A stretch of DNA of 64,000 nucleotides from an uncultured Nitrospiraceae bacterium (GCA_963727775.1 CAVSHB010000002.1:239428-303427); one strand, 5' to 3'. Positions 25,289 to 47,447 are shown, counted from the first letter of the stretch. Program-made: numbers and translations. The notes: generated by a model from the sequence alone, not told the origin.

Positions 25289-25356
25289 CGGTTGTACAGC
25301 ACAGAATTATTACATTTCTTAAAGGTGCGGCTTTCAGGAAGGAAGCTTGCGCATGG
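25289..25356 (+). repeat. 65-bp module-spacer repeat, copy R1 (+ orientation)
   Basis: GGTTGTACAGCACAGAATTATTACATTTC..GGCTTTCAGGAAGGAAGCTTGCGCATGG. Confidence 0.8.
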
Positions 25357-25402
25357 GCTCTCCTTGCCCCATGTCAACGGGTACCCCCTCGTCACTCTTT
25401 AT

Positions 25403-27036
25403 CCTAAAAAAAGCAGTTAGAGATCATGCCACACCAGTTTGAGGGAGCAATTTCCCTGAATTTATGTTCAAAGGGCCGATGATTTTTCTAAAAGCATGCA
25501 TTGCTACAATCCTCATCCGCTCAGCGATATTCAACTGCTCCGCAGTGGTCCTAATATCCCCGAGGAACAGTGATAGTCGTAACAATGCTCCCCGCACCTT
25601 TTCAGCCTTTGCATGAGGACTGGTAATAGTCAGAAAAGTCTGTCCCCCATGTTTTGTCTGTTTCGCAACTGCGTGTAACAGCAACGGTCTGCTCGTTATT
25701 GCCTCATGATGTTTATTTGGATTGGCCAGGCGCACAAACAGCGACCACCAGTTATATACAAGAGCTACCATGCGACTAATCATGCGGCATCGCTTCAAAT
25801 CCTTTGTCGTATATCCGCCCCAGCCCCACTGATTCTTTAACTCGTCAAAGATATTTTCACTGTCTGCACGATCCCGGTAATGCTGTGCAATACTTGATAC
25901 CTCATCAGAAAGAGAAGTCACCAGCACCGTGTACTCATACTTAGCCACTCCCCCTTGTGTCTCGATGAAACTCATCTCCATTTGATCTTTCCCTTTTTTC
26001 TGCAAAAGAATATCCCCAGGTATAGGTCGGCGCAGCACGATCACCCGGCGACTACGGCTCCACCCAAATAACTTCAGCTCTGACTCCATTCCATAGTATC
26101 CGGCACCGGCTTTTACCCATTCTTCCATCTCAAACATTCTCTCGATCAATCTTTTTACATTCTTCGTAATCCTCAGCTTTGTGACATAATGTATACTACG
26201 TTTTTCTGCCTCTGATAACACTCCCTCTACTCCAAACGCTATATCTCCACGGATGAAGGCCGGCCGATTATCCCGGGGAATACTCTCTACCAATTCCCAT
26301 AATCCAGCCGTGCTGTGACTCGATGCGGTCTCATTGCCCGCCTTCACTTCTACCTTTAACGCTAATCGTGTGTTTGCCATAAAATAACTGTGGTAACTGT
26401 GTGAGGGCCGCCCAGGTTTCTTAGGATTATATCCCACAACTGCCCCCTCTTGTTTGCCATACAGACACTTTACCGTCGTGTCCGTATCAAGTATCCAGGA
26501 GGGGCCTGATACTGCCGATAATACAGGCATCGTGCAGCGTGCAAGCTCTGATTCAAGCCATTGTATCCCAGTCCCTTCTTCTATCTGCAATAAGGCCCGA
26601 CGCGCCGCATCTTCACTGATTATCTTATCCATCCCCAATAACTCGGGATTCACTCCATCACTTCGTATCGCTGCGATATGTGCATATCGCTTATGTCCCG
26701 CAAGTATCGAAAGCATGAGAGTGCCTAACACGTTTCTCTTCTTCGGCGCATTCGGGCTGCTATAGGAGAGGGGACACTCTTTTACAAAGGAATCAAACAA
26801 CCCGCTGACTTTCAGAAATTCTATGAAAAATGGCAACTGCCCCAATGGGGTAACAGCTGCATCAGGGTCCCATTCTACGTGTATCTTCCCCGCATATGTA
26901 TCAATTCCTACTGAGTTGCTCCTTGCTATCGCACGCCGTTTTGCCTCACCCATTAGGTGAACCCTCCTGCCACTCTTTTTCCGTTTATTATTGCATGCTT
27001 CGCCCCTTATGTGTATCCCGTACCGCTTTTTTTAGG
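25403..27036 (-). mobile_element. IS1380-family insertion sequence (copy C), ~1634 bp
   Basis: IRs CCTAAAAAAAGCAGT (25403) and ACCGCTTTTTTTAGG (ends 27036) bracket the transposase. Confidence 0.65.
25424..26953 (-). CDS. IS1380/IS4-type DDE transposase
   Basis: 509 aa; GYNPKKPGRPSHSYH...YRDRADSENIFDELKNQWGWGGY motifs. Confidence 0.8.
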   Translation of the reverse strand: MGEAKRRAIARSNSVGIDTYAGKIHVEWDPDAAVTPLGQLPFFIEFLKVSGLFDSFVKECPLSYSSPNAPKKRNVLGTLMLSILAGHKRYAHIAAIRSDGVNPELLGMDKIISEDAARRALLQIEEGTGIQWLESELARCTMPVLSAVSGPSWILDTDTTVKCLYGKQEGAVVGYNPKKPGRPSHSYHSYFMANTRLALKVEVKAGNETASSHSTAGLWELVESIPRDNRPAFIRGDIAFGVEGVLSEAEKRSIHYVTKLRITKNVKRLIERMFEMEEWVKAGAGYYGMESELKLFGWSRSRRVIVLRRPIPGDILLQKKGKDQMEMSFIETQGGVAKYEYTVLVTSLSDEVSSIAQHYRDRADSENIFDELKNQWGWGGYTTKDLKRCRMISRMVALVYNWWSLFVRLANPNKHHEAITSRPLLLHAVAKQTKHGGQTFLTITSPHAKAEKVRGALLRLSLFLGDIRTTAEQLNIAERMRIVAMHAFRKIIGPLNINSGKLLPQTGVA

Positions 27037-27085
27037 TTTATAGACCTTACTCCATATTCCGGTTGGTATCACATACATACGGCAC

Positions 27086-27640
27086 TCATTGCCACCGGAT
27101 AATGCGGTCTTCGTAGTCTATCTGGAAGCGGGAGCTTTTGAGCATATCATTGCCGAGCAGTCCGTCGTAACTTCCGACCGCGCTAACCGGCACTTGGACA
27201 CTACTAACCCGCCTCGGGCCGATGCTGATCGAATCGAGAACCACCAAACCAGCCAAGCTGAACCCTCCGACCCCTTGTATCAGCGAAAGGTTGGCGTCTT
27301 TAGGGTTTATTTCCAGCTGCCTGGCAATATTCGGACTGATGAGCGATGTAGCAGCGCCAGTGTCAAACACGAACTGACCTTTGACCTCACGCCCCTTGTA
27401 GCTGACTGTGACCGGAACCACGATATGATTGTCTACAAGTTTGAAAGATGTCTCGGTCAGACTGTCACTTTCCTGAGCGTCGCGGGACACTATTTGAGCC
27501 TTATCTCCCGGATCGTCGGTAAATCTGACGTTGCCGTTATCGTCAATGTACTTATATATATCGGCGGCAGACGGTGAGTAGAAAATGAGAATAACAACCG
27601 CAACGGTAAGATAGCCTACCTGTGAATGCGCAAGTTTCAT
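27086..27640 (-). CDS. secreted retropepsin-like (clan AA) aspartic protease with DUF4124-like N-terminal region
   Basis: Signal/TM segment; YKYIDDNGNVRFTDDP; catalytic FVFDTGAATSLIS. Confidence 0.6.
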   Translation of the reverse strand: MKLAHSQVGYLTVAVVILIFYSPSAADIYKYIDDNGNVRFTDDPGDKAQIVSRDAQESDSLTETSFKLVDNHIVVPVTVSYKGREVKGQFVFDTGAATSLISPNIARQLEINPKDANLSLIQGVGGFSLAGLVVLDSISIGPRRVSSVQVPVSAVGSYDGLLGNDMLKSSRFQIDYEDRIIRWQ

Positions 27641-27700
27641 AATGTGTTCTACTCCCTATCGAGTCCTGTGTTGTCGCGAAAATCTTTCCATTGATAATTT

Positions 27701-27766
27701 CCGAGTGTACTATGCAGAATTATATCAAGTTTCAAACATGTTTGCTTCAGGAAGAAGGGTTGCACT
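27701..27766 (+). repeat. 65-bp module-spacer repeat, copy R2
   Basis: GAGTGTACTATGCAGAATTATATCAAGTTTC..GCTTCAGGAAGAAGGGTTGC. Confidence 0.8.
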
Positions 27767-27787
27767 TGTTCTTGTAATTATGCATGT

Positions 27788-28297
27788 TTAATAATTCGAA
27801 ACACCCCATCCCCAAAGTATTGCCGGTATTTCAACTGCAAGGAGACCTCCAATGAAGGAGAACGCATTTGCAACAAAGCTGTATGCCATGCTTCTCAAAA
27901 GTGATGGCGCAGCTTCAGGTTGTCGTGTAAGTCTTGGTGATCGAAGAAGGTAAAAAACCGCTATCCCCTCGGCTAAGGTGACTGCGATTTCGCCGACAAT
28001 TCCCACAATCGTCACGCCAACGAAGTTTTGCATTGCAACTATTGCAGTCATAAGAAGGATAAATGTGACGGTTGTAATCACTGTCCACACCCCTACAAAT
28101 CGCCAGAAGTAGGGATTTGTTCCCTTTCCCAATCGCGCCACAATGACCCCTTCCATCGGCAGTAGGATGGGTACAACAACAAGTGGAACCGGGTTCAAGA
28201 TTATTGGATCAGCGAAAGCGATGGACGGGCAAAGCATACTTGCCACCAGCAATATAAAAAGATCCCTAAGGTTGTTTTTTGATTCGTGATTATTCAT
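27788..28297 (-). CDS. hypothetical polytopic membrane protein
   Basis: Five to six hydrophobic helices. Confidence 0.45.
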   Translation of the reverse strand: MNNHESKNNLRDLFILLVASMLCPSIAFADPIILNPVPLVVVPILLPMEGVIVARLGKGTNPYFWRFVGVWTVITTVTFILLMTAIVAMQNFVGVTIVGIVGEIAVTLAEGIAVFYLLRSPRLTRQPEAAPSLLRSMAYSFVANAFSFIGGLLAVEIPAILWGWGVSNY

Positions 28298-28606
28298 CCT
28301 TCCATCTACGGCTACAAAGTCGTCCTTTCGGTTATAACCTGTACAATTATATCATTCTCATGTGGTCTCAGCTTCGGGAGGCAGTCTTACCCGTGGTAAC
28401 TTTCGAGAATAACCGCATGTCTGTATTCTTCTTTCGAGCGAAAAGTTTGCTGAGAGCTCATCTGGCAGCAAATTGGAAAATGCCTACAGAGTATAATAGT
28501 TTGGTAAAGACGATGACGACATTACATATTTTTTTATCCGTCCTTCTGGCTACTGACCCTTGGTCAGTCAGTTCCATTCGGGTTTCGAAAACATAAGACG
28601 AATGTA

Positions 28607-29452
28607 TTGATTATGACAAGAAGACTTAAGTTTCTACTAATCATCATGATATTGTTGGGCATATATATTGGCCGGAGCTATTGGCCATTTAAAGAGCAAA
28701 TAAAGATAGAGACGGCTCATTACACTATCTATTCTACAGCGACGCAGCAGCAAACTATTCTTATCGGAGAAGCAAGTGAAAGCTTGTACGCTGCCTATAC
28801 CGATTTTTTCAAAGATATGATAGATGCAAAAGAGCACAAGGGACGGCTAAGGATGAGGCTTTATAAGGATAGAGATGAGTTTAAGGCACACAACTGGAGT
28901 GCTCCCTGGGCAGAAGCATTCTATCACAACCCGTATTGTTATGCCTACTATCCCGAAAGTGAGGCCAATCCATATCACTGGATGATACACGAGGGAACCC
29001 ATCAATTAAACCGGGAAGTTGCCCATTTTAAGGTGCCCGAATGGATTGATGAAGGCTTAGCAACATATTTCGGTTCAAGCAAAATAAGAAATGGTAGATT
29101 GCAACCCGGTGAAATCGATGTGAACACGTATCCTATATGGATACTACAAACTATTTCCTTGACGGGCAACCTTCAGAAGGATATCAACAATAACAAGATA
29201 ATTCCTCTTCGCGCCCTAATTACAGGGACAGGAGGGCCTAATATCATCAGGCATTTTAATCTATACTACGTCCATTATTGGAGCCTGACACACTTTTTAT
29301 TTCACTATACGAACGGAAAATATTCTGATGGCTATAAAAGTTTGATCCGCGCAGGCGGCACATTGGAAGAATTTGAGAAGAGAATCGGATCGGTAGATCG
29401 GATACAGAACGAATGGTATGAGTACTTGCGACAGAGCGTGTCAGAAGTGTAG
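28607..29452 (+). CDS. putative zinc metallopeptidase (HExxH; DUF1570-like)
   Basis: N-terminal TM anchor; WMIHEGTHQLNRE (HExxH). Confidence 0.5.
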   Translation: MIMTRRLKFLLIIMILLGIYIGRSYWPFKEQIKIETAHYTIYSTATQQQTILIGEASESLYAAYTDFFKDMIDAKEHKGRLRMRLYKDRDEFKAHNWSAPWAEAFYHNPYCYAYYPESEANPYHWMIHEGTHQLNREVAHFKVPEWIDEGLATYFGSSKIRNGRLQPGEIDVNTYPIWILQTISLTGNLQKDINNNKIIPLRALITGTGGPNIIRHFNLYYVHYWSLTHFLFHYTNGKYSDGYKSLIRAGGTLEEFEKRIGSVDRIQNEWYEYLRQSVSEV

Positions 29453-29543
29453 AAAAAATGAAAGAGCCCTAACAGTTAAGTCATGCCAAATATTAACTTA
29501 AGGTTGACATCAGTATAGAAGCGCGAGAGTCTTGTCTGTTCCC

Positions 29544-29610
29544 ACTTGTACTGAACATGATTATATCAGGTTTCGGTGCCGTTGACTTCAACAAGGAAGG
29601 ATTATTGCCT
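29544..29610 (+). repeat. 65-bp module-spacer repeat, copy R3 (between convergent genes)
   Basis: CTTGTACTGAACATGATTATATCAGGTTTC..ACAAGGAAGGATTATTGCC. Confidence 0.75.
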
Positions 29611-29703: not shown

Positions 29704-30687
29704 TCAGAAAACATTCACTTTGAATGTCACTACTTTTGCAGGCGGCACATCCTTCTCCCAAGGTCTTATATATCTAAAGTTGATTGCTGTTTTACCCTTC
29801 CCGGTAGCCTCGAAGAGCCAAACTTCTTTACCTCCTGCACCGATAAGCCCGGTTTGCGATTTCCTATATTTGTTGCGCACTAACCTGATAATTGTGCTCT
29901 CTTTTGGGCTGATCATCTCCCAGTGATATCCTGTGGTGACGTTTGAATCAAGAACAAGCGTAAAATGTTGACCAGGGGCTACTTCAATCTCCAAGCTGGG
30001 ATTGCTGAACTCAAGTATATTCGATGCGACATTAATCACTTTTGCTCCGACAAAAGTACCGGAACTTTCGAAATCAAAGGCGATCAGTACAGTACCGAGA
30101 AGTTCACAAGCGTGACAGCCATTCTGGAGGCGGTAGGCAGCAACAAACCTCTTTCCCTTGTTTAAAAGATCTTCGCCCTTCACACAAGGGGCGTCATATC
30201 TGTCACCAGGCCAGAGATTCACTTTAGGAAAATTGTGGGCTATTTGTTCATACAGTTTGTGCTTCGTTAGGTCCACATTCTTTAAAATGTCATTATCGTC
30301 GATGTCGATGACCGACGGGTTTCCGTTTACGAGATAACATCCGTAGTTCTCATTCGCCCTAAATGGATAAAAAACTTGAGCGATATCCACCGCTCCGTCC
30401 CTTTGGAAGGCTGTTATATAGGCCGTATTTCCTATGTGTTTGGTAAAGACGATAGCCTCGCATGGGGCCCCTGAATCTTTCATCACGGTGACGAAACAAG
30501 CCCCAAAGTCCTTCACCGCTTCCATTGAACAGCGCTCAAGCACTTGTTGCCTAAAGGAACTACCGGGATTCCAGACTACTTCCGGACCTATCTGCTGATT
30601 TTCGGCTGAGGCGACACCAGTCAGGAAGCATATTATTATAAATATCTGGGCAATCAAACTCTTTATAGGCTCCCCTTTTTCTGACAT
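29704..30687 (-). CDS. hypothetical secreted protein
   Basis: Signal peptide; 327 aa; no family recognised. Confidence 0.5.
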   Translation of the reverse strand: MSEKGEPIKSLIAQIFIIICFLTGVASAENQQIGPEVVWNPGSSFRQQVLERCSMEAVKDFGACFVTVMKDSGAPCEAIVFTKHIGNTAYITAFQRDGAVDIAQVFYPFRANENYGCYLVNGNPSVIDIDDNDILKNVDLTKHKLYEQIAHNFPKVNLWPGDRYDAPCVKGEDLLNKGKRFVAAYRLQNGCHACELLGTVLIAFDFESSGTFVGAKVINVASNILEFSNPSLEIEVAPGQHFTLVLDSNVTTGYHWEMISPKESTIIRLVRNKYRKSQTGLIGAGGKEVWLFEATGKGKTAINFRYIRPWEKDVPPAKVVTFKVNVF

Positions 30688-30774
30688 CGCTTTAAGAATC
30701 TAAACCTCCCCCAAAAGACACTTCAAAACTCATTTCTCATTTTTTAAATCCAGCAAGACATTTCACCCATTCCA

Positions 30775-30840
30775 GTTGAACTGCGCACAATCATAGCACC
30801 TTTGAATGGTGTTACCTACAGGAAGGAAGCTTGCGCATAT
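30775..30840 (+). repeat. 65-bp module-spacer repeat, copy R4
   Basis: GTTGAACTGCGCACAATCATAGCACC..CCTACAGGAAGGAAGCTTGCGCATAT. Confidence 0.75.
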
Positions 30841-33011: not shown

Positions 33012-33085
33012 GTAACCTCCATTTTTATTGGTTTCCTTTAGCTTTGTTGCTTATCATTAATTTATCATGATTCATATTTAATTCC

Positions 33086-33146
33086 GGTTGTACTGAGCAT
33101 AATTATATCAGGTTTCCCTACAGTGGGTTTCAGGAAGAAGCAAAGA
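33086..33146 (+). repeat. 65-bp module-spacer repeat, copy R5
   Basis: GGTTGTACTGAGCATAATTATATCAGGTTTC..GGTTTCAGGAAGAAGC. Confidence 0.8.
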
Positions 33147-33151
33147 ATCTA

Positions 33152-33334
33152 TTATTTGAGCCCGATCTTTTTCCAAAACATAAGTCCAGGGCAAATTCCT
33201 GTTATCCCTGCAAGGGTAAATAAGCCAACTAGAATATAAAGGAACCAATGAACCTTATCAAAACCTGTTAACCATATCCCTATAAAAATCAAGAAAGCGA
33301 CTGTTATAAATTGTGCTCTCAGAGCTGAAGACAT
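33152..33334 (-). CDS. DUF2892-type small membrane protein (YgaP-like, GxCP motif)
   Basis: 60 aa; two TM helices; GICPG motif. Confidence 0.5.
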   Translation of the reverse strand: MSSALRAQFITVAFLIFIGIWLTGFDKVHWFLYILVGLFTLAGITGICPGLMFWKKIGLK

Positions 33335-33359
33335 AGTAAGCCTCCTTTGTTATTTTCCT

Positions 33360-33406
33360 TTTGTACTCAAAACAATTATATCAGGTCTTCGAGTAGTGGA
33401 CTACAG
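33360..33406 (+). repeat. 65-bp repeat copy R6, left half (split by IS110-family insertion)
   Basis: TTGTACTCAAAACAATTATATCAGGTCTTC..GGACTACAG ends exactly at the IS junction. Confidence 0.7.
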
Positions 33407-33971
33407 CTTGCTATATTGTAGTTAATGATGAGATCGATATATCTTCCAGGTAAGAATTGTTTATCCGGCAAAGGAAAGAAGGAGGAGATATTTATGAAAG
33501 GGTTACGGACGAAAAGAGTAAACATGATAAAGGAAGGGGCATTGATAGTAGCGATAGACATTGGTATGGCAAGTAACCATGGGTGCTGTGTGGCAGCAGA
33601 CGGGAGGAGCACCAAGACATTCAAGTTTGATAATACAAGAGAAGGACTTGATAGATTGTGGAACATGGTACTTGCGAGCAAAACCAGATTTCAATGCAAT
33701 GAGGTCATTATAGGATATGAGTCAACCGGACCTTATGGAGAGCCGTTGGTTCACTATCTCAAGCAGAAACCAGCAACGATCGTACAAGTAAACCCACTGC
33801 ACACGAAGAGGATGAGAGAGATCAATGACAACTCTCCATTAAAGACTGATCGTAAGGATCCCCGGGTAATCGCGGATGTCATACGGATAGGGCACGCCTT
33901 AAGCGTCGTGGTCCCAGAAGGTGCTGCCGCCTATTTGAGAAGAATAAATAATGCACGGGAGAGACATATTA

Positions 33972-35592
33972 ACCCGAAAAATGCGTTTGCTATAGGCATA
34001 CCTATAGAGTCAAGCCTATCAAGGCATTGGCTGATTTGTCGATATAAAAGCTAATACTGATGCTGTTTCTTGTTCCACCTCCTGAAAATTATGTTCTTTT
34101 TATCTAAATGCAGTGCAATTACCAAAACTGGGGGGAAAGTATTGTCCCACGCGGTTAAAGAGGTAGCGCAGTTTTGATCGTACTTTCTGCGTAAAGACAG
34201 AAATCCGCAATACAGGTTTCCTTCCATCCCATCCTAATTGGGCTGGAAGGACAAGATACTTGTACCGTAAGGTTTTCAAACGTTCTGTCTTTTCTTTTTG
34301 ACCGAGTATCTGATGCCTGAACAGGACAAACAGATTGTAGATGAATACCCGAATAAGCATAGCCGCCTCCGTTGAGTAGAAATACTTCATCGAGAACCCG
34401 CCGAGTGCAAAATCCTCTTTCAGTTCCTTGATGGTATTCTCATCGTTCGCCCTATGCCTGCATTGCTTCCATACCTCATATGTAGAATCATGTGAATTGG
34501 TTATCCATACGCTATAACGATAATGCCCTGTATCAAACTCATCTCCGAAAAGAGACAACTCTTTTCCCATCGCGTGCGGTCTCTTCTTGACATCCTGGCG
34601 CACTGCAATAAACCTCCTGTCGATTATCCACTCTACATGCTGGAAGAAGAACTCAGTGATCCATATCCCTTCTTCTACCTGTGCCCAGTTTTGTTGTGCG
34701 TAGATTATCCTCTGCAGCGGACGATATAGGCGAGCAGCTATGATATATACTAATTCTCTCTTCTCAAGCAGTTCGATGAACTCCCTAAGATAAAATCCAC
34801 TGTCTGCAATAATGCCCTTGATATCGATATGACCGTTGATCCTCTGCCATGTGGATTCAAAAAATCCAATAATGTTGTTCCATGACATCACGTTGCCGGG
34901 GCGGTTCCAAAGATTTATCACATACTTGTTTCTGTTAAGAAATGCCAGAAGCGGGCTGTGGCTACCACGGCCCTTCTTCTTCGGGTTATATCCCCTCTTG
35001 ACTCCCTCCTGTTTTCCGTATCGCTCAAGGACTGTAGAATCGAACGTCAACCAGTCCTCTTTGAGCTCTTTCCAGGGGATCAATCTCTTCAAGTATCCCC
35101 ATAATCCCTCCGACATCTCTTCCACTTCCTTCAGTTTTCTGATCTTCCTGAAAAGCCTGCCCAATGTCGTCGAGGCGATAGGAAGCCTCTTCACTGCAAA
35201 AAGATCGGTGAAAATCTCCTGCCAACCAAGATAAAGTAGATGAGAAAACCTGCTGCCTCCCGCATAGATCAGAAGGATGTATGCCAATACCTTGCTGTAT
35301 ATCCCCATTCCATTGGGTGAACTCTCATGGATCGGAATCACCTCTTGCAAAATTCCTCTCAATTTGATCTTTTCAAAAAATGCAGCCAATAAACTGAATC
35401 CCCCATATGCCGTCATCTTCTTCTCCGTAAATCCAATCCTTACTTTATTTATTTCGATCTTTGTGCTACATTTTGACTGCATATTTCTATTCTCCTTTCG
35501 TTTAGAGTTGATGGTCGGGTAAACCTATTGATTCTAATACGAAAGGAGAATTTCTTCGGGGATATTATTTTAGGTCAACTGCACTTTTTGGG
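33972..35592 (-). mobile_element. IS1380-family insertion sequence (copy B), 1621 bp, TSD TTAA
   Basis: TTAA at 33968-33971 and 35593-35596. IRs CCCGAAAAATGCG / CACTTTTTGGG. Confidence 0.7.
34100..35482 (-). CDS. IS1380/IS4-type DDE transposase
   Basis: 460 aa; GYNPKKKGRGSHSP...HRANDENTIKELKEDF motifs. Confidence 0.8.
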   Translation of the reverse strand: MQSKCSTKIEINKVRIGFTEKKMTAYGGFSLLAAFFEKIKLRGILQEVIPIHESSPNGMGIYSKVLAYILLIYAGGSRFSHLLYLGWQEIFTDLFAVKRLPIASTTLGRLFRKIRKLKEVEEMSEGLWGYLKRLIPWKELKEDWLTFDSTVLERYGKQEGVKRGYNPKKKGRGSHSPLLAFLNRNKYVINLWNRPGNVMSWNNIIGFFESTWQRINGHIDIKGIIADSGFYLREFIELLEKRELVYIIAARLYRPLQRIIYAQQNWAQVEEGIWITEFFFQHVEWIIDRRFIAVRQDVKKRPHAMGKELSLFGDEFDTGHYRYSVWITNSHDSTYEVWKQCRHRANDENTIKELKEDFALGGFSMKYFYSTEAAMLIRVFIYNLFVLFRHQILGQKEKTERLKTLRYKYLVLPAQLGWDGRKPVLRISVFTQKVRSKLRYLFNRVGQYFPPSFGNCTAFR

Positions 35593-36383
35593 TTAAAGAG
35601 CGGACCGCTCTTCTCAACCAATTACGGCAGTTTGTGTTTCTCATATTCCCAGAATTTGGCCGAATAATAAAGACGATATTCTGCAAAACATCCTTACATA
35701 TACTCAAGAAATATACGACACCGGCAAAGGTATGCAGCGTAAATATAGAGAAACTTGGAGGGGAAATGAGGAGATGTAGCATGGGCAAATTCGGGGTAGA
35801 ACATGCTACGGCGCTGATCAATTATGCAAAGACCACCATCGGTATTCAAGAAGGGTTGGACGGATTAGTTATGGATATACAGCACGCCCTCGTCCAGCTG
35901 GAGATGGTCGATAGTCTCATAGCGGAACTGGAGCACGAGATGGAGACAACCCTACAGCGCATACCCTACAGTCGCAAACTCCTGTCAATCAAAGGGCTCG
36001 GGATAGTAACGGTAGCAGGGCTTATTGGTGAGATAGGCGACTTTACAAAGTTTAAAACGCAGTCTGAGATAGCGAAGCTTGCCGGTCTTGACCTGTACGA
36101 AGTAAGCTCCGGGAAAAGACAAGGACAGAGGAGGATATCAAAGAGGGGCAGAAGCCTGTTACGGAAAATACTGTATTATGCCGCCATGCAGACAATCAGA
36201 AAGAACGGCATTATGCATGAGTACTACCAAAGACTGATAGGCCGGGGCATGAAAAGTATCATGGCGCTCGTTGCAGTATCCAGGAAACTATTGAGGATCA
36301 TATTTGCAATTGTAAGGGATGACACTGAATTCATAATGAATCATGAAGCTCAGAGAAAGGAGGAGATGAGAAAGGCCGCTTAG

Positions 36384-36636
36384 AGTTATAATTCACGTAG
36401 GCGGGGAGATTATCGTTTTCTTCCTTTAAGGCGCAATGCGACCTTCGACTACAGAATACATAACTCCCCGTCGACATTCTAACTCCAATTAAGCAAGGTA
36501 AAAGCGTTCAATACGACTTTCAAATTACAAGGGTTGGGTAGGATGTCACATACAAGATGGGGGATAACCGTCTACGAGAATAGATATTTCTATCTAAGTC
36601 CACATATAAAAATATATCTTGACTGGAATAAACAAG
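36384..36636 (+). ncRNA. candidate IS110-family bridge RNA / seekRNA (3' structured non-coding region of element A)
   Basis: Conserved with element B: GGCGGGGAGATTA...CGACCTTC[variable]TAACTCCCCG...TTAAGCAAGGT. The variable segment GACTACAG equals the left target flank GGACTACAG. Confidence 0.55.
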
Positions 36637-36650
36637 GAAGGAAGCTTGCC
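36637..36650 (+). repeat. 65-bp repeat copy R6, right half (GAAGGAAGCTTGCC)
   Basis: Directly follows the IS110 element A right end. Confidence 0.65.
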
Positions 36651-37732: not shown

Positions 37733-37770
37733 TTGACCTTCATCTCCTGTCCATAATATTTATTGATTAC

Positions 37771-37838
37771 CGGTTATACTAAGCACAATTATATCAGGTT
37801 TCAATCTTGCCGGTTTCAGGAAGGAAGCTTGCGCATGG
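37771..37838 (+). repeat. 65-bp module-spacer repeat, copy R8 (near-consensus)
   Basis: CGGTTATACTAAGCACAATTATATCAGGTTTC..CGGTTTCAGGAAGGAAGCTTGCGCATGG. Confidence 0.85.
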
Positions 37839-38274: not shown

Positions 38275-38437
38275 GTATACGTTCCTCCTTTTTTATTTTA
38301 TCTATCTAACATTATGCCAACTTGGTATTTCTCGATTTCTTGAAATAATATAGCATAGTAAGGAATTACTTGAAAAAGAAAATTACAGAGAAATTTATAA
38401 TAAACATCAAGATGTCCGATGAGAGTTCCTATTAATT

Positions 38438-38502
38438 TGCAAGAGTACTTAACAGCCTCAGCTCGATACTCCCCGCGTTTAGTACAGGAAGGATGCTTGC
38501 CT
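38438..38502 (+). repeat. 65-bp module-spacer repeat, divergent copy R9
   Basis: GAGTACTTAACAGCC...GTTTAGTACAGGAAGGATGCTTGCC. Confidence 0.55.
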
Positions 38503-40573: not shown

Positions 40574-40648
40574 ATACCATTCCTCCTTGGTATTTGATAA
40601 TTAACGGCTCCGCTCCATTATAGCAGATTCTTTTCCGCTAAAGATTTA

Positions 40649-40712
40649 CGGTTGTACTAAACATCATTATGTTAGAGTTCCATGGTGTTTAGAAGAGGAA
40701 GAATGGTTGCCT
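40649..40712 (+). repeat. 65-bp module-spacer repeat, copy R10
   Basis: CGGTTGTACTAAACATCATTATGTTAGAGTTCC..GTTTAGAAGAGGAAGAATGGTTGCC. Confidence 0.7.
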
Positions 40713-40773: not shown

Positions 40774-41226
40774 CTACTTGTTTGCATCTATGTTCTTATT
40801 CTTTAAGACCAATCGGATTGCAACAAGCGTTTTCTTGTTCTCCTCTGTAGGGAAGAGATCGTATGCTTTGGCATAGTTTGCCTCCGCCTCCTTGGTATTG
40901 CCAAGTTCCTGATTCAGGGAGCCAAGCAGTGTATATCCGTAATAGAAGTCCGCATGTGCCTTAATTAGTCTCTGTAACATACCCTGCGCTTTATGGAACT
41001 CCCCTTTATCCAAAAGGCTTCTTGCCTCTTGCCAGGAATCCGTAGATTGCGGCACAACGCTGAGACGGCTCGACATGCGATGTATGAATGGAGTCACCGC
41101 CACAACAGACACAACTAAGATACAAAAGACAATAGTGACTATTATGTACACCTTGTTAACTTTCTTAAATAAAGCCGTCTGATTCTTTAACTCTTCAAGA
41201 ATTTGCCGTTGTATATCTTCATCCAT
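40774..41226 (-). CDS. TPR-repeat membrane-anchored protein
   Basis: TM helix, then TPR-like AYxxLGxxxxxLGN motifs. Confidence 0.55.
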   Translation of the reverse strand: MDEDIQRQILEELKNQTALFKKVNKVYIIVTIVFCILVVSVVAVTPFIHRMSSRLSVVPQSTDSWQEARSLLDKGEFHKAQGMLQRLIKAHADFYYGYTLLGSLNQELGNTKEAEANYAKAYDLFPTEENKKTLVAIRLVLKNKNIDANK

Positions 41227-41248
41227 TGCTCTCTCCTTTACTCCTTTC

Positions 41249-41304
41249 CGATTGTACTACGCACAATTATATCAGGTTTGAATGTTGCGGGTTTCAGGAA
41301 GCAA
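41249..41304 (+). repeat. 65-bp module-spacer repeat, copy R11
   Basis: GATTGTACTACGCACAATTATATCAGGTTTG..GGGTTTCAGGAAGCAATGG. Confidence 0.8.
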
Positions 41305-41330: not shown

Positions 41331-41699
41331 TCAAATTCTATCTCTCAATAGAAAAATACTTCCAACGATTAACATGGGAGCACTTATCCTCAAAAAAAAT
41401 TGGAATAATGATTGCAAATCTACAGACGTATAGAATGAAAAAGCAATCAGGGATACAATACTACCTGTGACGAGCCATGATCCACCAATTTTATTTCGGA
41501 AGATTGACAGAATCACCGCAGGCAATGTTGAAATAGGCCCACTTAATATAATAAGCCATGATATCCGGGGTTCGTCTTGCCTGAAAACAAAAATTGCTCT
41601 TGTTCCTAAGAAGAAATGCATAACACCAATGCCGATGCCTACTATAATAATGCCTACATATAATCCTTTTCTCTTAATATCCTTATGATGATTATCCAT
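41331..41699 (-). CDS. hypothetical polytopic membrane protein (start 5 bp from repeat R12)
   Basis: The longest ORF extends into the repeat. The internal Met at 41699 (MDNHHKD...) is the likely start. Confidence 0.45.
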   Translation of the reverse strand: MDNHHKDIKRKGLYVGIIIVGIGIGVMHFFLGTRAIFVFRQDEPRISWLIILSGPISTLPAVILSIFRNKIGGSWLVTGSIVSLIAFSFYTSVDLQSLFQFFLRISAPMLIVGSIFLLRDRI

Positions 41700-41703
41700 A
41701 ATA

Positions 41704-41756
41704 GTCAACACAATTATATCAGGTCTCAAATACGTTTAGTTCAGGAAGGATTAAGC
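41704..41756 (+). repeat. 65-bp module-spacer repeat, copy R12
   Basis: TCAACACAATTATATCAGGTCTC..GTTTAGTTCAGGAAGGATTAAGC. Confidence 0.75.
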
Positions 41757-41826: not shown

Positions 41827-42186
41827 TTAATTTAATCTCACAATCAAGACATCAGCAACAAGCTCCTTGCCGTTGTTTGCTGACTTCGTTACTTTCTTGA
41901 GAGTGAAATCTTTTCCGCAAACGATTTTTGCAACATCTTCTGTTTTTAGGTTGGAGAACTGTTCTTGAGTTGCCGCCCACGTTACCGGTCCAACAGTTAC
42001 TGCTTTTCCCTCGCAATATCCTGCCACCATTGCGGTAACATTCCCAGCTTTGTTGTCATATGTTGCTCCCAGTCTTCCCGAAACTGTAGAGACAGATGAA
42101 GCTGCATAAGCCAGAGTTGCTCCGATGGAAACCGCTACTAATAACAAAACCATGAATAATAATCTCACGTTGGTCTTTTTACGCAT
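41827..42186 (-). CDS. hypothetical secreted protein
   Basis: Signal peptide MRKKTNVRLLFMVLLLVAVSIGATLAYA. Confidence 0.45.
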   Translation of the reverse strand: MRKKTNVRLLFMVLLLVAVSIGATLAYAASSVSTVSGRLGATYDNKAGNVTAMVAGYCEGKAVTVGPVTWAATQEQFSNLKTEDVAKIVCGKDFTLKKVTKSANNGKELVADVLIVRLN

Positions 42187-42395
42187 TTCGCCCCTCGCTT
42201 TTATTCCTCGAAAAAGTTTGTAAGAGAAAATCCGATCCCCCTGAGACATTCTTCCCTTCACCTCTCATCCAGACCCATACTGAGAGTTAAAGATTGTGTG
42301 GTTAGCTGTATGCTACTCTCTGTCTGGATTCTTGTCAAGATATCGTATATTTGGGTGGGATAATCTTTTACACATATTTGCTTATCGAATAGCAG

Positions 42396-42452
42396 TTAAA
42401 GTCCGCACAATTATAGCCGGTCTTGAAGTTGCGTGGTACAGGAAGGAGCTGA
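42396..42452 (+). repeat. 65-bp module-spacer repeat, copy R13
   Basis: GTCCGCACAATTATAGCCGGTCTTG..GTGGTACAGGAAGGAGCTG. Confidence 0.75.
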
Positions 42453-42602: not shown

Positions 42603-44313
42603 CTAGGAGTCTGTCGGACTTGAATTGCTGTTTTTGACAGCGGTTGGAATCCGAGAGAGTCGATTGTAGTTATTTTTCATGATTTGATCGTCTGTCATCG
42701 GTTCTTTCCTGCCGGTGTTTTGTTGGATACATTATGCCATCGCCATTTTCAGGCGCCTACCTGGCTGTTCCTCAATGCATGCAGCCTTTTGATGTTCCAT
42801 GCAATGCAGATCATATCCCACTCGCCATTGACTGCAGTAAAACCACGCAACAGGAATCGGTCAAATCCCATAGCTGCCTTGATTACCCCAAACGCCGGCT
42901 CCACAGTACTCTTGCGTATCGCATAAATTGCCTTACCGGCAACTGTCTTCAACCGATGTTTCATTCTTGTCACTGCATCAGCATCAACCGGCAATGGAGG
43001 CGGTTCGACGAATCGCTCCCATAAAGGCTGATTATGACTCTGCCGATCTACTGCTATATATGGCTCTATTCCTTTGCTCTCACATTCTTGCACATTTGCT
43101 TCGCTGTAATACCCGCTGTCGGCTATTATAGTTTTTACTTTGCCAAGTTGTTCGGGCAGATATGTAAGCGCTTCAAGCGCTGGTTTCATCTGCTGTTTGT
43201 CATTGGATTGTTGTGTTACATGCGTTGCGACAATAAGCATTGTTTCTGTATCCACGGCTGCTTGAGCATTATAAGCCTGCTTGAATCCTCCACCCGATGC
43301 CGGCATTATGCGAGATTCTTCATCGGTCAGATTGACCTGATCTTTGTCAGTTGGCCCGGCTGCAGGCGGCTTGGGTCCTTTGCCTCGGGGTTTCTTGCCG
43401 CTCTGCTTTTGTTTGGCTACACGCTCTGCCTGTTTCTTTTCACTGTCGGCTTGTTCCATTGCATGCCGCTCTGCCGCACGGCGCTCTATCTCAGCTTTTG
43501 CTTCAGCTATCATTTTCAGCCGCTTCTCTCGCCGCTCCAGCTCTTCCGGGATGTTCATGCCGTCAGGAATGTCAGCTTTGTCAGCAGCCTCAGCTTTCTT
43601 CATCAGTTCCGCCACTTCCACTTTCAACTTATTCTCTATTTTGCATGCATGCCCGTAGCTCAACGCCTTGTGCTTTGAGGCATTGGCTTTCATTTTGGTC
43701 CCATCCAAGCTGACCGTGCCTAACTTCAATACCCCGGTTTCTGCTGCTATCATTAGTATCTGCACAAACAGTTCTTTCAGCTTAGGCAAAAACCGACGTC
43801 GAAAGGTTGCTATTGTGTCATGGTCAGGGTGACTGTTGGCTGCCACATACCGGAATGCTACAGAGTCGTACGTGCTACGCTCTAATTGCCTGCTCGAAAA
43901 GACTCCCGTCGCATATCCGTAAAATAATAATGCCACCAGCATCTCAGGGCTGTATGCCTCACTGCCTCGTCCTGCATAATCATTTTTCAACCGGTCAAGA
44001 TTAAGCTGATCCACTATCTCTACGACAAATCTCGCCAAGTGACCCTCGGGCAACCATTCCTGCACCGACGGCGGAAATAAATATATCGTCTCTCTGTCAC
44101 ATTGTTTGAACATTATGCTGATCTCCTGTTGTTCATTCTTATGCCGCTTGTCTATTATGCCATAAGGAACGCCCATGCAGGTCTGTCGGACTTAGATAAT
44201 TACAGGCCGAAAAGATTTCTGCTGCCCAGTTTGCAATAAAGGTTCTTAAGAGACTGCCGTGTCCTTCAAGAAGTAAACTTTTCAGAAATGTTGAAAGTCC
44301 GACAGACTCCTAG
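42603..44313 (-). mobile_element. IS1182/IS5-like insertion sequence, copy 2 (identical to copy 1)
   Basis: Same 1711 bp including the 19-bp TIRs. Confidence 0.85.
42749..44176 (-). CDS. DDE transposase, IS1182 family
   Basis: Identical 475-aa product. Confidence 0.85.
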   Translation of the reverse strand: MGVPYGIIDKRHKNEQQEISIMFKQCDRETIYLFPPSVQEWLPEGHLARFVVEIVDQLNLDRLKNDYAGRGSEAYSPEMLVALLFYGYATGVFSSRQLERSTYDSVAFRYVAANSHPDHDTIATFRRRFLPKLKELFVQILMIAAETGVLKLGTVSLDGTKMKANASKHKALSYGHACKIENKLKVEVAELMKKAEAADKADIPDGMNIPEELERREKRLKMIAEAKAEIERRAAERHAMEQADSEKKQAERVAKQKQSGKKPRGKGPKPPAAGPTDKDQVNLTDEESRIMPASGGGFKQAYNAQAAVDTETMLIVATHVTQQSNDKQQMKPALEALTYLPEQLGKVKTIIADSGYYSEANVQECESKGIEPYIAVDRQSHNQPLWERFVEPPPLPVDADAVTRMKHRLKTVAGKAIYAIRKSTVEPAFGVIKAAMGFDRFLLRGFTAVNGEWDMICIAWNIKRLHALRNSQVGA

Positions 44314-44429
44314 TGTAAATGGCAGAGATTATTTATGGTCAATTTGTCCTATGTCAAGGGCTGACCCCATGGATGTCCTTTTTGCGCCTTTACTCTTTCA
44401 GCACCTCTACAAACGGGCGTCATTAATCA

Positions 44430-45326
44430 TTAATAGGAAGATATCAGGGGGCAATTTTGGGGTAGCACCAGCTTAATTGTACCCGGCAGCACCTCAAAGC
44501 GAATTTTGTTTGTTTTAATAGGCTCACCATCCAGATTGATCGGCATCGCAACATCAGACTCCCATTCAGCCCAAGGCACCCTATAACGCTTGATATAATC
44601 TCCGCTGACTTCAGACTCCGTCAACTCCCTTATCACTTGCCCCAGATCTTTTGGTGGAAAGCGGAGTAATCCTACAATATCCAGCAACCCGTCATCAATA
44701 AAAGCGCTGGGAGCTAACTGCTGGCCACCACCGGCCTGCTTACCATTACACACAGCGCCGACGATAACATCATTTTGCAAAGACCCCTGGGGCATACGCA
44801 GTTCGCCCTTATAAGGCACAAATTTCAGCGCTTGTACCATAGCGGAAAGAGTATAAGCGCCTCCACCGAGAAAATTCTTTAACGCCACTGGCGTGTTTGC
44901 TGTCACCTGAGCTCCAAAGCCGCCACTGGCCACGTTGATAAAGTGGAATTCGTTGGCCCTTACACCATCAACGGCACATGACTGACCGGATTGAGCCAGT
45001 TCCAGCGCAGCCAATGGATCCGAAGGGATGGAACATGCTGTGGCAAAATCGTTGGCAGTACCAAGCGGCAGTATTGCCAATTCCGGTCGCTCAGCGGCTG
45101 GCAGTTGTAACATGGCATCAACAACCTCATTTACAGTGCCATCTCCACCGCCTGCCACCAGGCGAAGACATCCATCAGCGCAAGCTTCTCGAACCAGCCG
45201 TTTAACATCACCTGCTTCCCAGGTGACCCTGACTTCAACGCCGCCGTTTTCTCTTGCGCTGTAAATCGCTGTCCGAACAGGTTTAAGTGCTGCTTTTTTA
45301 CCGTTTAAAATGATTCGAATATCCAT
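44430..45326 (-). CDS. diacylglycerol kinase catalytic-domain family lipid kinase (YegS/DgkA-like)
   Basis: GGDGT motif; DAGK_cat fold signature. Confidence 0.7.
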   Translation of the reverse strand: MDIRIILNGKKAALKPVRTAIYSARENGGVEVRVTWEAGDVKRLVREACADGCLRLVAGGGDGTVNEVVDAMLQLPAAERPELAILPLGTANDFATACSIPSDPLAALELAQSGQSCAVDGVRANEFHFINVASGGFGAQVTANTPVALKNFLGGGAYTLSAMVQALKFVPYKGELRMPQGSLQNDVIVGAVCNGKQAGGGQQLAPSAFIDDGLLDIVGLLRFPPKDLGQVIRELTESEVSGDYIKRYRVPWAEWESDVAMPINLDGEPIKTNKIRFEVLPGTIKLVLPQNCPLISSY

Positions 45327-45404
45327 TCAGAACCAATGGAATTAGCAATATAATTAAAACTATTTTCTTCATTGTTTATTCAATAAAAAAAGTTAACGAT
45401 TTAT

Positions 45405-45462
45405 GGTTCTACTCAACACAATTATATCAAGGTCGGAAAGTGTTGCCTACAGGAAGAAACGA
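45405..45462 (+). repeat. 65-bp module-spacer repeat, copy R14
   Basis: GTTCTACTCAACACAATTATATCAAGGTCGG..GCCTACAGGAAGAAACG. Confidence 0.75.
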
Positions 45463-45469
45463 TGTTCCT

Positions 45470-45955
45470 TTATGCTCTGTTATCAAGGACTTCTATCTCG
45501 GTCTTAAAAAGTAGGAAAAGCGAACCAATATCGTCTTCGGTCAGACCAATACCGTCTTCTTCGGCGTCTTCCATTAGAGCTTCAAGGACATATTTCATTA
45601 CATATGGCTGCTTAGAAACTTGGACGCCCGCAATTCTATCGATGAATTTGTCATGGGTTCCTTCAATGCTTTCTATTAAACGTATATTTTCATCATACCT
45701 TGCCATAATCTCCTTGGAAGAGATTTTTGGGAGCTTACCGCTTGAGTCAAGAAACATCTTATAAACAACAAAGGCGACATATATGGCAAGCTCTTTCACT
45801 TCCTGCTGAAGATCATCTGTGTATGCCATCAGAAAAGCTAAGAGAGCTGGCTGGTTCTTACCCATGGCAATCATCTCTTTATTTGCCCTGTCTGCAGTGA
45901 AGGCGGCAACTTGTTGCCAGGTTTTCTCTACGAATACCTCAGATAAGGGGTCCAT
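45470..45955 (-). CDS. hypothetical protein
   Basis: 161 aa acidic ORF. Confidence 0.45.
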   Translation of the reverse strand: MDPLSEVFVEKTWQQVAAFTADRANKEMIAMGKNQPALLAFLMAYTDDLQQEVKELAIYVAFVVYKMFLDSSGKLPKISSKEIMARYDENIRLIESIEGTHDKFIDRIAGVQVSKQPYVMKYVLEALMEDAEEDGIGLTEDDIGSLFLLFKTEIEVLDNRA

Positions 45956-46009
45956 TTAAATAACTGTCTCCTTTCTAAATCCTTTACTAGAATCGTACAT
46001 CATGTCTGA

Positions 46010-46237
46010 TTATCCACCCGTAATATTTCTTATAAGCAATATTAAGCCTCCGATGATGAAGGCCAGAGCAAACGGAATGAGCAGACACCCTGGAGTTGGT
46101 TTGTCGATATATTTGCCACGACCGACATAATAACCAGTAAATGATCCGATTTCGTTTCTGAAGACGAGCATGAGTATCCCAACAACAATGATCAACAGAT
46201 CGATAAAAAAAGAATTGCGCGGCACAGTTGTCATCAT
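46010..46237 (-). CDS. hypothetical small membrane protein
   Basis: Two TM helices. Confidence 0.4.
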   Translation of the reverse strand: MMTTVPRNSFFIDLLIIVVGILMLVFRNEIGSFTGYYVGRGKYIDKPTPGCLLIPFALAFIIGGLILLIRNITGG

Positions 46238-46270
46238 AGGAGTAAAAAGATAGAAACTATATTAAATGAA

Positions 46271-46543
46271 TTATTTTACCGCGCCCTTTAAAGCTTTCCC
46301 GGCTGTAAATTTCGGTGCTTTCCGGGCTGCAATCTTAATTATTGCGCCTGTTTGAGGATTACGCCCCTTCCGTGCCTTCCTCTTTGAAATCGAGAAAGTC
46401 CCGAAACCTACAAGAGCTACTTTGTTCCCTTTCTTCAGTGTCTTGGTAACTGCATCAACAAATGAGTTAAGAGACTTTTCCGCTACTGCCTTTGAAGCAC
46501 CTGAGTCTTTTGCCATTTTTTCTACAAGTTCTGCTTTTGTCAT
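46271..46543 (-). CDS. hup: HU-family DNA-binding protein
   Basis: [11 protein letters not shown]...[21 protein letters not shown]...[12 protein letters not shown]. Confidence 0.85.
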
Positions 46544-46643
46544 AGATACCCTCCATTAATATTAATTGTAAAAAAGTATACCATGCCTATATTGAAAAAT
46601 AGCTATCATGCCATCTGGAAAATTATACATTAATCTTTTTTGT

Positions 46644-47225
46644 TTACTTCGGTATCGCTGAGTATGGCTGAGCTCGGCGCGCCCATTCACTCTGAGGATA
46701 TTTTTCCGAAAGTGTGTCGTATGCCCGGCGAAGCGCACTTGCTTCGTGAGTCTTTTTATATTCAGCTACGCCAAGGAAGAAGATTGATTCGGGAGCCACG
46801 CCTGCATTGGGATGCTCTTCAATAACCTTTTTAAACCACTTTGACGCCTCCTCATGTCGTTCCTTCTCGAAAAAGACCATGCCTTTACTGAATTTGAGCT
46901 GTGCGAGAAAATCATCTGTAGGAATGTATCCGACAAGCTTTCTATGTACCCTGCCCCCAGCGTCCTGAATGAGGAACGTAGGGGTCCAGGCGATATTGAA
47001 TTGTTTCATAAGTTCCGTTCGTTCCTTCCAGAAACATTGGCTCTTTAGTGGGACGTACTCCTCCTTAATGAATGTTTGGACCTTTTCATCTGAATACGGA
47101 CCCGCATTCATTGCAGCGCAGCCAGCTCACCCGTCGAACCAGAAGTCATGGAAAACCGGCTTGCCTTCTTTCTTTGCCTTTTCTAAGGCAGTCTCAAAAT
47201 CCCTTTCCCATTTTATCTCGGCCAT
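46644..47225 (-). CDS. thioredoxin-fold (DUF255-like) protein with in-frame UGA: candidate selenoprotein (UxxC redox motif)
   Basis: ATG at 47225 (RBS gaggagg). ...[21 protein letters not shown]... aligns to the GKPVFLxIGYSxCHWCHVM thioredoxin-like motif, with Sec in place of the first Cys. A hairpin lies about 10 nt downstream of the UGA. Confidence 0.5.
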
Positions 47226-47391
47226 GTCAATCCTCCTATATTAATTCACCAAAACCTGTTTAAATTGTATCATGGGAAAAGAGCGAAATCATCTTTTGTG
47301 TTCAAGCACATCGAAAAGATATTAAGTGCCACCGGTCAAATTCAGCAGCCGCCAATAAGCGCGCTGACCTATTAACTGTACGGCGACAATG

Positions 47392-47447
47392 ATCCTTCCT
47401 GAACTAAACATTTCTGAAACCTGATATAGTGGTGCGTAGTTCAACTA
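47392..47447 (-). repeat. 65-bp module-spacer repeat, copy R15 (inverted orientation, right boundary of array)
   Basis: Reverse complement reads GTTGAACTACGCACCACTATATCAGGTTTCAGAAATGTTTAGTTCAGGAAGGATC. Confidence 0.75.

Follow-up and report, generated by a model that had tools for sequence, protein, structure and literature searches.

Gene modules with putative promoter heads joined at a 7-bp core: a candidate cassette array in an uncultured Thermodesulfovibrionales bacterium

The array and its repeated site

A 64,000-nucleotide stretch of DNA from an uncultured Nitrospiraceae bacterium (GCA_963727775.1, CAVSHB010000002.1:239428-303427), which we will refer to as the window, contains a run of mostly single genes of unrelated function that are separated by copies of a short repeat. 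An earlier note on this DNA had proposed that the run is an integron-like array with sites of a non-canonical kind. We describe the repeat as a site with two parts, a 7-bp core (CTTCCTG) and a putative promoter arm, and we propose that the gene modules that it delimits have been exchanged within the core.

The repeat is real. Within the window, the two halves of its consensus had 7 and 2 matches with at most 3 mismatches, where 0.01 and 0.00 were expected. A profile built from the copies matched 14 times on the plus strand (at 25267, 27682, 29523, 30750, 33064, 33335, 37115, 37749, 38430 (weak), 40630, 41232, 41676, 42370, and 45386) and once on the minus strand (47382-47466), and the remainder of the 64 kb gave no further match at E < 0.1. 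A listing of the heptamer added a bare core at 24592-24598 and identified the copy at 33335 as the right half of a site that is split by an IS110-family insertion sequence (IS); the left half, CTTCCT, lies at 36635-36640. In total there are 15 direct copies between 24.6 and 45.5 kb and one inverted copy at 47.4 kb, just as the earlier note had counted, and all of the window's copies are intergenic, as it had also stated. The further divergent copy that it had seen beside an IS110 element is present too, at ~62946, next to a second IS110. The core is exact in 13 of the 15 copies (if the IS110-split core is counted as originally intact) and the -10 hexamer in 10 of the 15, in a window that was not chosen by the pattern we used to scan other genomes. 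The earlier note had read the element on the opposite strand: because the array genes are nearly all on the minus strand, the element is to be read as the reverse complement, and coordinates and strands below follow that reading. Its description of single-gene modules in one orientation holds as well, except that three modules also contain IS elements and that one gene, encoding a DUF1570 protein, is antisense. The sites and modules (aa, amino acids; ORF, open reading frame) are as follows.

24592..24598, minus strand: bare terminal core CTTCCTG, which ends the last cassette's tail (minus strand ..CTCTCAATTACTTCCT/GCTATACGTAACAAAACC, with the slash at the junction) and directly adjoins the inverted repeat at the right end of the Xer-like pair element described below
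25285..25341, minus strand: site copy (core 25335-25341 plus promoter arm), heading an 80-aa Cys-rich ORF (24872-25114) with a homologue in locus L022
25424-26953: IS with a DDE_Tnp_1_4 transposase, inserted downstream of the aspartyl protease gene
27698..27754, minus strand: site copy heading the aspartyl protease gene (27086-27640)
27788-28297: 169-aa ORF
28326-28354: core-less remnant of a promoter arm (TGATATAATTGTAC..), upstream of the 169-aa ORF and beside the antisense DUF1570 gene; possibly left behind by an inversion or a deletion
28607-29452, plus strand: DUF1570 gene, the only gene antisense to the array
29543..29599, minus strand: site copy with core variant CTTCCTT; its module holds the DUF1570 gene, the arm remnant, and the 169-aa ORF
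30769..30825, minus strand: site copy heading a chagasin-type peptidase inhibitor I42 protein (29704-30687)
33081..33137, minus strand: site copy heading an SPFH/Band 7 (flotillin-like) protein (30990-33011); its junction is common to L147, L036, and others (tail family 15)
33354..33406, minus strand: promoter arm and ..CTG half of the IS110-split site, heading a YgaP-like 60-aa cassette (33152-33334) whose module has 82% identity with one in L036
37116..37172, minus strand: site copy heading a CcbP-like calcium-binding protein (36662-37030)
37767..37823, minus strand: site copy with the best match to the consensus, heading a 123-aa ORF (37361-37732)
38435..38491, minus strand: site copy with intact core and degenerate promoter arm (profile E = 2.8e-4), heading a hemerythrin (37867-38274)
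40645..40701, minus strand: site copy with core variant CTTCCTC, heading a transglutaminase-like DUF3857 protein (38657-40573)
41245..41301, minus strand: site copy heading a TPR protein (40774-41226)
41692..41748, minus strand: site copy heading a small membrane protein (41331-41699)
42389..42445, minus strand: site copy heading a 144-aa ORF (41827-42261)
~42603-44300: IS, one of three identical copies, inserted downstream of the DAG-kinase/YegS-like gene
45400..45456, minus strand: upstream-most direct site copy, heading the DAG-kinase/YegS-like gene (44430-45326)
45470..47280, minus strand: four-gene unit upstream of the array, with no internal site copies (Trx-like/TPR candidate selenoprotein 46644-47225, HU 46271-46543, a 75-aa ORF, and a 161-aa ORF)
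~47262-47270: the four-gene unit's own promoter-like sequence, TGATACAAT
47395..47451, plus strand: inverted site copy, facing the plus-strand gene 47674-48210 and divergent from the four-gene unit

The IS at 42603-44300 encodes a 475-aa DDE_Tnp_1/DUF772 transposase, and its other two copies in the window, ~6441-8140 and 59330-61030, are 100% identical to it. In the four-gene unit, the thioredoxin-fold/TPR protein (46644-47225, minus strand) has an in-frame TGA within FWFDG-U-AGC, a UxxC redox motif, which makes it a candidate selenoprotein, as the earlier note had proposed.

We derived the consensus and the sharp 5' edge of the element from 187 unique sites. On the gene strand the consensus is T.CTTCCTG, ~20 nt, TGATATAAT, TGTGC, .., AGTACAACCGGAAAT, or at greater length (minus strand of the window) ..T.CTTCCTG-(A/T)A.....C..(~20 nt)..AAACCTGATATAATTGTGC..AGTACAACCGGAAAT. 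The near-invariant TGATATAAT is a perfect extended -10 (TGnTATAAT), and the heptamer lies at about -42 to -36 in an element of ~60 bp. Conservation starts sharply at the heptamer and extends to about +50: each position of CTTCCTG carries 1.6-2.4 bits of information and the positions before it carry ~0, and the 20-45 nt that separate the heptamer from the stop codon upstream show no conservation.

The element is neither an imperfect palindrome nor a carrier of R''/R' cores, as the earlier note had recognised. In 60 sampled sites, with three windows and both strands, folding relative to shuffled sequences gave mean z-scores of -0.38 to +0.38, with no hairpin. By inspection, the attC cores RYYYAAC and GTTRRRY are absent from both strands of the consensus; the closest sequence, GTTGTAC/GTACAAC, has one mismatch and is at the wrong end in either orientation. 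The Rfam 15 covariance models found nothing at the gathering threshold and nothing at E <= 1. There is also no -35 hexamer in the element, and a standard -35/-10 scan misses the sites, as would fit promoters able to work without a -35 element.

The family is broader than our profile, because variant arms that follow some cores escape detection (L147 ~700, L041 ~2000, L033 ~6140, L082 ~640; also L121 and L069). One type has ..GTGTATATTT ~30 nt past the core, and another reads TTTAAAT..TGC..AATAC.ACATTACAAATAGAAATCA. Also, every copy carries the consensus from +36 to +50 (e.g., window 37767-37785, minus strand), so that the presumed transcript would start with AGUACAAccGGAAAU. This sequence resembles the consensus RUACARGGAUGU that was selected for CsrA by systematic evolution of ligands by exponential enrichment, with a 2-nt insertion, and a common post-transcriptional control of all of the cassettes is conceivable.

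Putative promoter arms and module junctions across genomes

To cover other genomes, we scanned one genome per species with the pattern CTTCCTG-N16-19-ACCTGATATAATTRT, for which less than one chance match is expected. The scan returned 36 stretches from ~25 metagenome-assembled genomes (MAGs). Nearly all of these genomes belong to the Thermodesulfovibrionales or to other Nitrospirota, and each has one to three exact matches, which lie on different contigs or at different loci. Metagenome contigs matched as well, at least 120 of them, and there was no match to the pattern in viral contigs or in phage and plasmid collections. Two of the matched MAGs have stretches that are 82-83% identical to the window, which therefore belongs to the Thermodesulfovibrionales. 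In the 157 loci compared and the window, the profile finds 246 copies, and other genomes too have clusters, with 3-4 copies in 1-3 kb (L021, L022, L033, and L037). The element is therefore not confined to one locus beside an integrase pair, as the earlier note had envisaged; it spans an order, with several loci per genome, and often stands as a single copy before a gene for a cold-shock protein (csp), HU, or PilZ. Nor did we see the spread in both orientations that is typical of repetitive extragenic palindromic (REP) sequences and bacterial interspersed mosaic elements (BIMEs), which the note had named as the alternative outcome: of 89 pairs of neighbouring copies, 82 are tandem, 7 are divergent, and none is convergent.

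The orientation of the element follows that of the gene. The first ORF after the element shares its strand in 141 cases and lies on the opposite strand in 9, and the single inverted copy in the window faces the sole plus-strand gene nearby. The -10 lies a median of 75 nt before the start codon. The genes that follow have unrelated functions (41 Pfam families among 38 downstream proteins): they encode PilZ (four cases), HU, cold-shock protein, zinc peptidase, FIST, MFS, pentapeptide, methylglyoxal synthase-like protein, restriction enzyme, and others. Thus the sigma-70 extended -10 pattern, TGnTATAAT at a suitable distance before a co-oriented gene, is present, and the element fits an extended -10 promoter. 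The site as drawn in the earlier note had no promoter, yet on the gene strand the conserved part is TGnTATAAT, and it is at the 5' end of the cassette, the opposite of the arrangement in integron cassettes. As the promoter arm appears to travel with the downstream gene, each cassette would carry its site and its promoter at its 5' end.

The evidence for exchange comes from the junctions. In a closed chromosome (OY970295.1), a unit of promoter arm and 69-aa ORF occurs twice with 99.7% identity. The homology begins exactly at CTTCCTG, with unrelated DNA upstream, and at the other end a 42-nt tail block is 100% identical and stops at the next CTTCCTG, after which the two copies continue into different arms. 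Units with a zinc-ribbon protein (FmdB-type), a cold-shock protein, or a YgaP-like protein (the last in the window) have the same junctions between genomes: the FmdB tail has five different continuations, the YgaP tail has seven, and the csp tail varies too. Over all loci, it is at the heptamer's G that shared blocks most often have their 3' ends.

To generalise these cases, we grouped the 40 nt to the left of every exact CTTCCTG into tail families. Among the 23 families with at least two members, 16 have more than one right side; one of these is a mere indel variant and one is ambiguous, which leaves 14 clear families in which a tail is joined to two or three unrelated right sides straight after the G. 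Window site 33131 belongs to one of these 14. We also compared pairs of sites with both aligned at the core. (In a sliding-window profile of break hazard, the motif's own conservation masks divergence at the core, so we relied on anchored pairs and tail families instead.) Pairs with the same tail and different downstream modules have an identity of 0.8-1.0 as far as the G and are close to background from +1 onwards, and pairs with the same downstream module and different tails are at background to the left of -7 and reach ~0.9 from +16. Together, the pair profiles and the tail families imply that the tail belongs to the upstream gene, that the arm belongs to the downstream gene, and that the heptamer alone is common to both. 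Solitary units retain a 3' heptamer even without an arm after it (L036 and L034). Junctions of 7 bp cannot be chimeras of de Bruijn assembly, which require repeats longer than k, and one example is in a closed chromosome. On the available sequences, then, the CTTCCTG junctions look like the signature of site-specific exchange in a 7-bp core, which a plain promoter would not explain. The claim that modules have recombined at the element gains support from junctions in 14 independent tail families.

Recombinases and IS110 elements near the sites

Two kinds of mobile element adjoin or interrupt the sites in the window: a pair of tyrosine recombinase genes and IS110-family elements.

19687..24592, plus strand: Xer-like tyrosine recombinase pair element, with inverted repeats TGCTATACGTAACAAAA/TTTTGTTACGTATAGCA
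19773-20543 and 23388-23630, plus strand: int1, split by an IS21
21060-23133: IS21 in int1 (istA 21060-22472, istB 22456-23133)
23542-24549, plus strand: int2
33407..36634, plus strand: IS110-family element inserted in the core's central CT, with CTTCCT and CTG on either side
33425-34054 and 35634-36383: transposase gene of this IS110, split, with a nested DDE_Tnp_1_4 IS at 34100-35482
61574-62836, minus strand: transposase gene of the second IS110
62929..63000, plus strand: end of the second IS110, ..ATATAGCAAG/CT, then a diverged promoter arm, TGTATACTGGTACAAAT

The earlier note had tied the array to the recombinase pair, and this link we could not support. The pair element has its own inverted repeats and is found uninterrupted in unrelated flanks (L018 (5562-7585), L062, L073 (843-2902), and L103; further loci are L158-L163) as a unit of ~2.06 kb with two overlapping recombinase genes. 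Elsewhere its flanks read ..GT(A/C)GGT on the left and (A/G)(T/G)GGTG on the right. The element is highly abundant in metagenomes: close relatives of int2 number in the thousands, mostly on ~2 kb contigs, with over 80% identity among the best 120 listed, and none of the six loci that we retrieved through the protein contains an array. On the integron-integrase model TIGR02249, int2 scores 114 bits (cut-off 265). The match is in two pieces, with no coverage of the profile between positions 182 and ~257, which suggests that the IntI-specific segment is missing; the proteins that int2 matches best are XerA/XerC-like, and neither recombinase of the pair reaches the model. We therefore rejected the pair as the cassette recombinase for want of support; it is an independent multi-copy mobile element and, as far as the evidence goes, not part of the cassette system. 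The spacing is also different from the ~700 bp between pair and array that had been described: the last core directly adjoins the pair's terminal inverted repeat, at 24592. Two points about the pair element are odd, namely that there are five copies of it in 0.74 Mb of motif-selected DNA, so that it is over-represented, and that its right end in the window meets the cassette tail exactly at CTTCCT/G.

Another candidate was IntX, a 279-aa tyrosine recombinase. In L089 and L129, its gene is divergent from ~100 bp of conserved sequence that ends in CTTCCTG and is followed by variable content, which might have been an arrangement like that of intI and attI. We rejected this because loci chosen by IntX show a gene of ~1 kb between inverted repeats (TTCTGGGGTCTGC-like, ~25-40 nt from each end) with no arrays nearby. 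The gene was seen at L089 4156-4776, L129 1-708, and L092 2-109 and in L164-L168, and IntX appears to be a minimal one-gene mobile element. It has over 3000 relatives at E <= 1e-30, and the few with a named source are from Nitrospirota/Thermodesulfovibrionales and one Syntrophus MAG.

The proposal that IS110 elements target the repeat, on the other hand, is supported, and the insertion is at the core's central CT. The end of the IS110 at 33407-36634 is also found in a metagenome contig (L127, 75-140), where it is followed by CTG and a different arm, and the second IS110 of the window ends likewise; one IS110 end is thus joined to different promoter arms at three places. This targeting parallels that of attC sites in integrons by IS1111-attC elements.

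Proposed mechanism, alternatives, and relation to known systems

We propose that the repeat is the head of a cassette: a ~60-bp element, specific to Thermodesulfovibrionales, that combines a 7-bp core with an arm consisting of a ~20-nt spacer, the extended -10 TGATATAAT, the discriminator TGTGC, and the transcript start AGTACAACCGGAAAT. A module would then run from the promoter arm through a short leader, one gene, and an unconserved tail of 20-45 nt to CTTCCTG, and because it begins with the arm, every gene would bring its own promoter. Tyrosine recombinases use an identical crossover region of 7 bp. A site-specific recombinase acting in trans would cut and join the modules inside the heptamer, perhaps by way of a circular cassette; as the core is asymmetric, insertion would be directional, and repeated insertion beside an existing core could build up co-oriented arrays such as the 15-unit array in the window. 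How the sites are conserved, oriented, and placed relative to genes is observed, as are the nucleotide-exact junctions; that the promoter is active, that cassettes pass through a circle, and which class of enzyme is involved we infer. That promoter-headed gene cassettes are exchanged within an asymmetric heptamer by an unlinked recombinase is, in our judgement, slightly favoured by these data.

Several observations weigh against the proposal. ORF clustering in the 157 loci found no recombinase family that recurs beside the sites, so the enzyme must act in trans, and both tyrosine recombinases that do occur nearby belong to independent small mobile elements. The sequence to the left of the core is unconserved, and the only dyad is T(-8)/A(+2), or CTTC-CT-GAAG in some copies, so a classical two-arm recombinase site is not evident. 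We found no polymorphism for a single cassette (A-X-B in one genome and A-B in another) in the 157 loci; a search for collinear indels returned only an unrelated deletion within a gene, the IS21 insertion, and a 614-nt insertion in L033. (The last, L033 5451-6064 relative to L013 6462, contains a 141-aa ORF, has ACT on both flanks, and separates the tail from the stop codon in a cassette that is identical in other respects.) Pairs with the same module have an intermediate identity in the spacer (+1 to +15), which may mean that some exchanges occurred in the -10 block, as in homologous recombination, or that the spacer merely drifts. Finally, many copies are solitary and precede ordinary genes, as would be expected for a plain promoter.

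The main rival is indeed that the element is only a promoter, a strong, lineage-specific extended -10 that is dispersed before accessory and stress genes, with no dedicated recombination system. CTTCCTG would perhaps be an activator site and +1 to +20 an operator or leader, and the shuffling would reflect ordinary intergenic rearrangement, or homologous recombination between copies, with selection for intact promoters. The array itself would be an island of genes that are each transcribed independently. The TGnTATAAT motif, its co-orientation with the gene at typical distances from the start codon, the solitary copies before csp, HU, and similar genes, and the divergent pairs all agree with this, as does the failure to find a linked recombinase or a single-cassette indel; and repeated promoters before unrelated genes have been described (PMC3488235). 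Such a promoter would not, however, account for where the breakpoints fall. They are neither scattered over the 20-45-nt tails nor centred on AAACCTGATATAATTGTGC, the longest identical block (17-19 nt), where exchange of the RecA type would fall; on both sides they coincide with a 7-bp sequence, and a 3' CTTCCTG is kept by solitary modules that have no following arm (L036 and L034). With no convergent pair among 89, the degree of co-orientation also exceeds what we would expect of independently promoted neighbours. We consider this explanation unlikely overall, though it deserves to be taken seriously. We think it improbable that the 60-bp element alone is mobile as a non-autonomous selfish repeat, in the manner of miniature inverted-repeat transposable elements, REP sequences, or Correia elements, with a transposase in trans, CTTCCTG as preferred target or target duplication, and an incidental supply of promoters. 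Many intergenic copies in IS-rich genomes, a core on both sides of solitary modules, and a promoter carried along as in Correia elements would suit such a repeat. But the copies have neither terminal inverted repeats nor a palindrome, they are 65-85% identical instead of nearly identical, they are conserved across an order at one to three exact-pattern matches per genome, and the unit that different contexts have in common is arm, gene, and tail.

A chromosomal integron, or a cluster of attC sites lacking an integron integrase (CALIN), with very divergent attC sites that are served by the neighbouring integrases, is the reading to which we give the least credence, and it hardly seems tenable. 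It would explain co-oriented single-gene units of diverse function, IS110-family insertions in the sites, and tyrosine recombinase genes that adjoin the array. However, it is refuted on the defining features that we examined: no IntI is present (the split match of 114 bits is far from the cut-off of 265, and the multi-copy element that holds the integrase pair is unrelated), RYYYAAC and GTTRRRY are lacking, the sites fold no better than shuffled sequences on either strand, and the conserved arm is the 5' end of the downstream cassette rather than the 3' end of the upstream one. The earlier note was thus partly right in seeing a cassette-like array with non-canonical sites that is not an integron: the array and the non-canonical character of its sites stand, and the link to an adjacent recombinase is unsupported.

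Integrons, which are defined by IntI and a folded attC, are to our knowledge the only well-characterised system that captures, stockpiles, and reshuffles single genes at short specific sites. The arrays described here resemble them in being co-oriented, with mostly single-gene modules of unrelated function that recur in different orders and contexts, in having junctions inside a conserved 7-bp core (compare G/TTRRRY in integrons), and in being exploited at their sites by IS110-family elements (compare the IS1111-attC elements). They differ in that the array has no adjoining IntI gene and no platform of attI and cassette promoter (Pc); the site is not a folded imperfect palindrome and is unrelated in sequence; and it is at the 5' end of the cassette, with a promoter, whereas integron cassettes are typically promoterless with attC at the 3' end. 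Also, the sites are at several loci per genome, solitary ones included.

In Acinetobacter plasmids, pdif modules place genes between short sites in various contexts while the host Xer proteins are encoded elsewhere, and these share with our modules the short bounding sites and, on our proposal, the recombinase encoded at a distance. The pdif sites are 28-bp XerC-6-XerD dyads (two inverted 11-bp arms with a 6-bp spacer) in alternating orientation, whereas the sites here have no dyad, are in direct orientation throughout, carry a 50-bp promoter arm, and are chromosomal in Nitrospirota, so they are not of the pdif type. The short intergenic repeats of the REP/BIME, REPIN, and Correia families are similar in that some of them, the Correia elements, carry promoters and that REP sequences are targets of IS110-family elements. 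Those families have palindromic units or inverted-repeat boundaries, lie in either orientation, are species-specific, and move as the repeat alone, whereas our element has no palindrome and its orientation is tied to the gene. Among the window ORFs that we scanned with Pfam there was no REP-associated tyrosine transposase (RAYT/Y1); one PF01797 Y1_Tnp gene is present in an unrelated locus (L168). A precedent for the arm is found in the putative mobile promoters of Matus-Garcia et al. (2012, PMC3488235), homologous promoters that precede non-homologous genes in one genome and in different genomes. The homologous 5' sequences before non-homologous genes (41 Pfam families among 38 proteins) are what that description calls for, but here promoter, gene, and tail seem to move as a unit, in directional arrays and with heptamer-exact junctions, and the family is order-wide.

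Taken together, the data make possible, and we suggest it tentatively as somewhat short of an even chance, a new class of cassettes in the Thermodesulfovibrionales: self-expressed, with a site at the 5' end that serves both as promoter and as one half of a recombination site, exchanged at CTTCCTG by an unlinked enzyme that is not IntI, and collected in directional arrays at several chromosomal loci, with genes moved between genomes of the order. Even on the conservative reading, the element would still be a strong, order-specific promoter. If the proposal is true, then there would be a second solution to the cassette problem, with linear, sequence-specific sites, a promoter for each cassette, and no adjoining integrase, and cassette-based genome plasticity would have evolved more than once. 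The tag CTTCCTG-N20-TGATATAAT would recover the flexible gene pool of the group from metagenomes, and it might lead to a new pair of recombinase and site. Such a system would likewise account for the small, variable clusters of genes in this uncultured and environmentally abundant group of sulfate-reducing and magnetotactic-related organisms.

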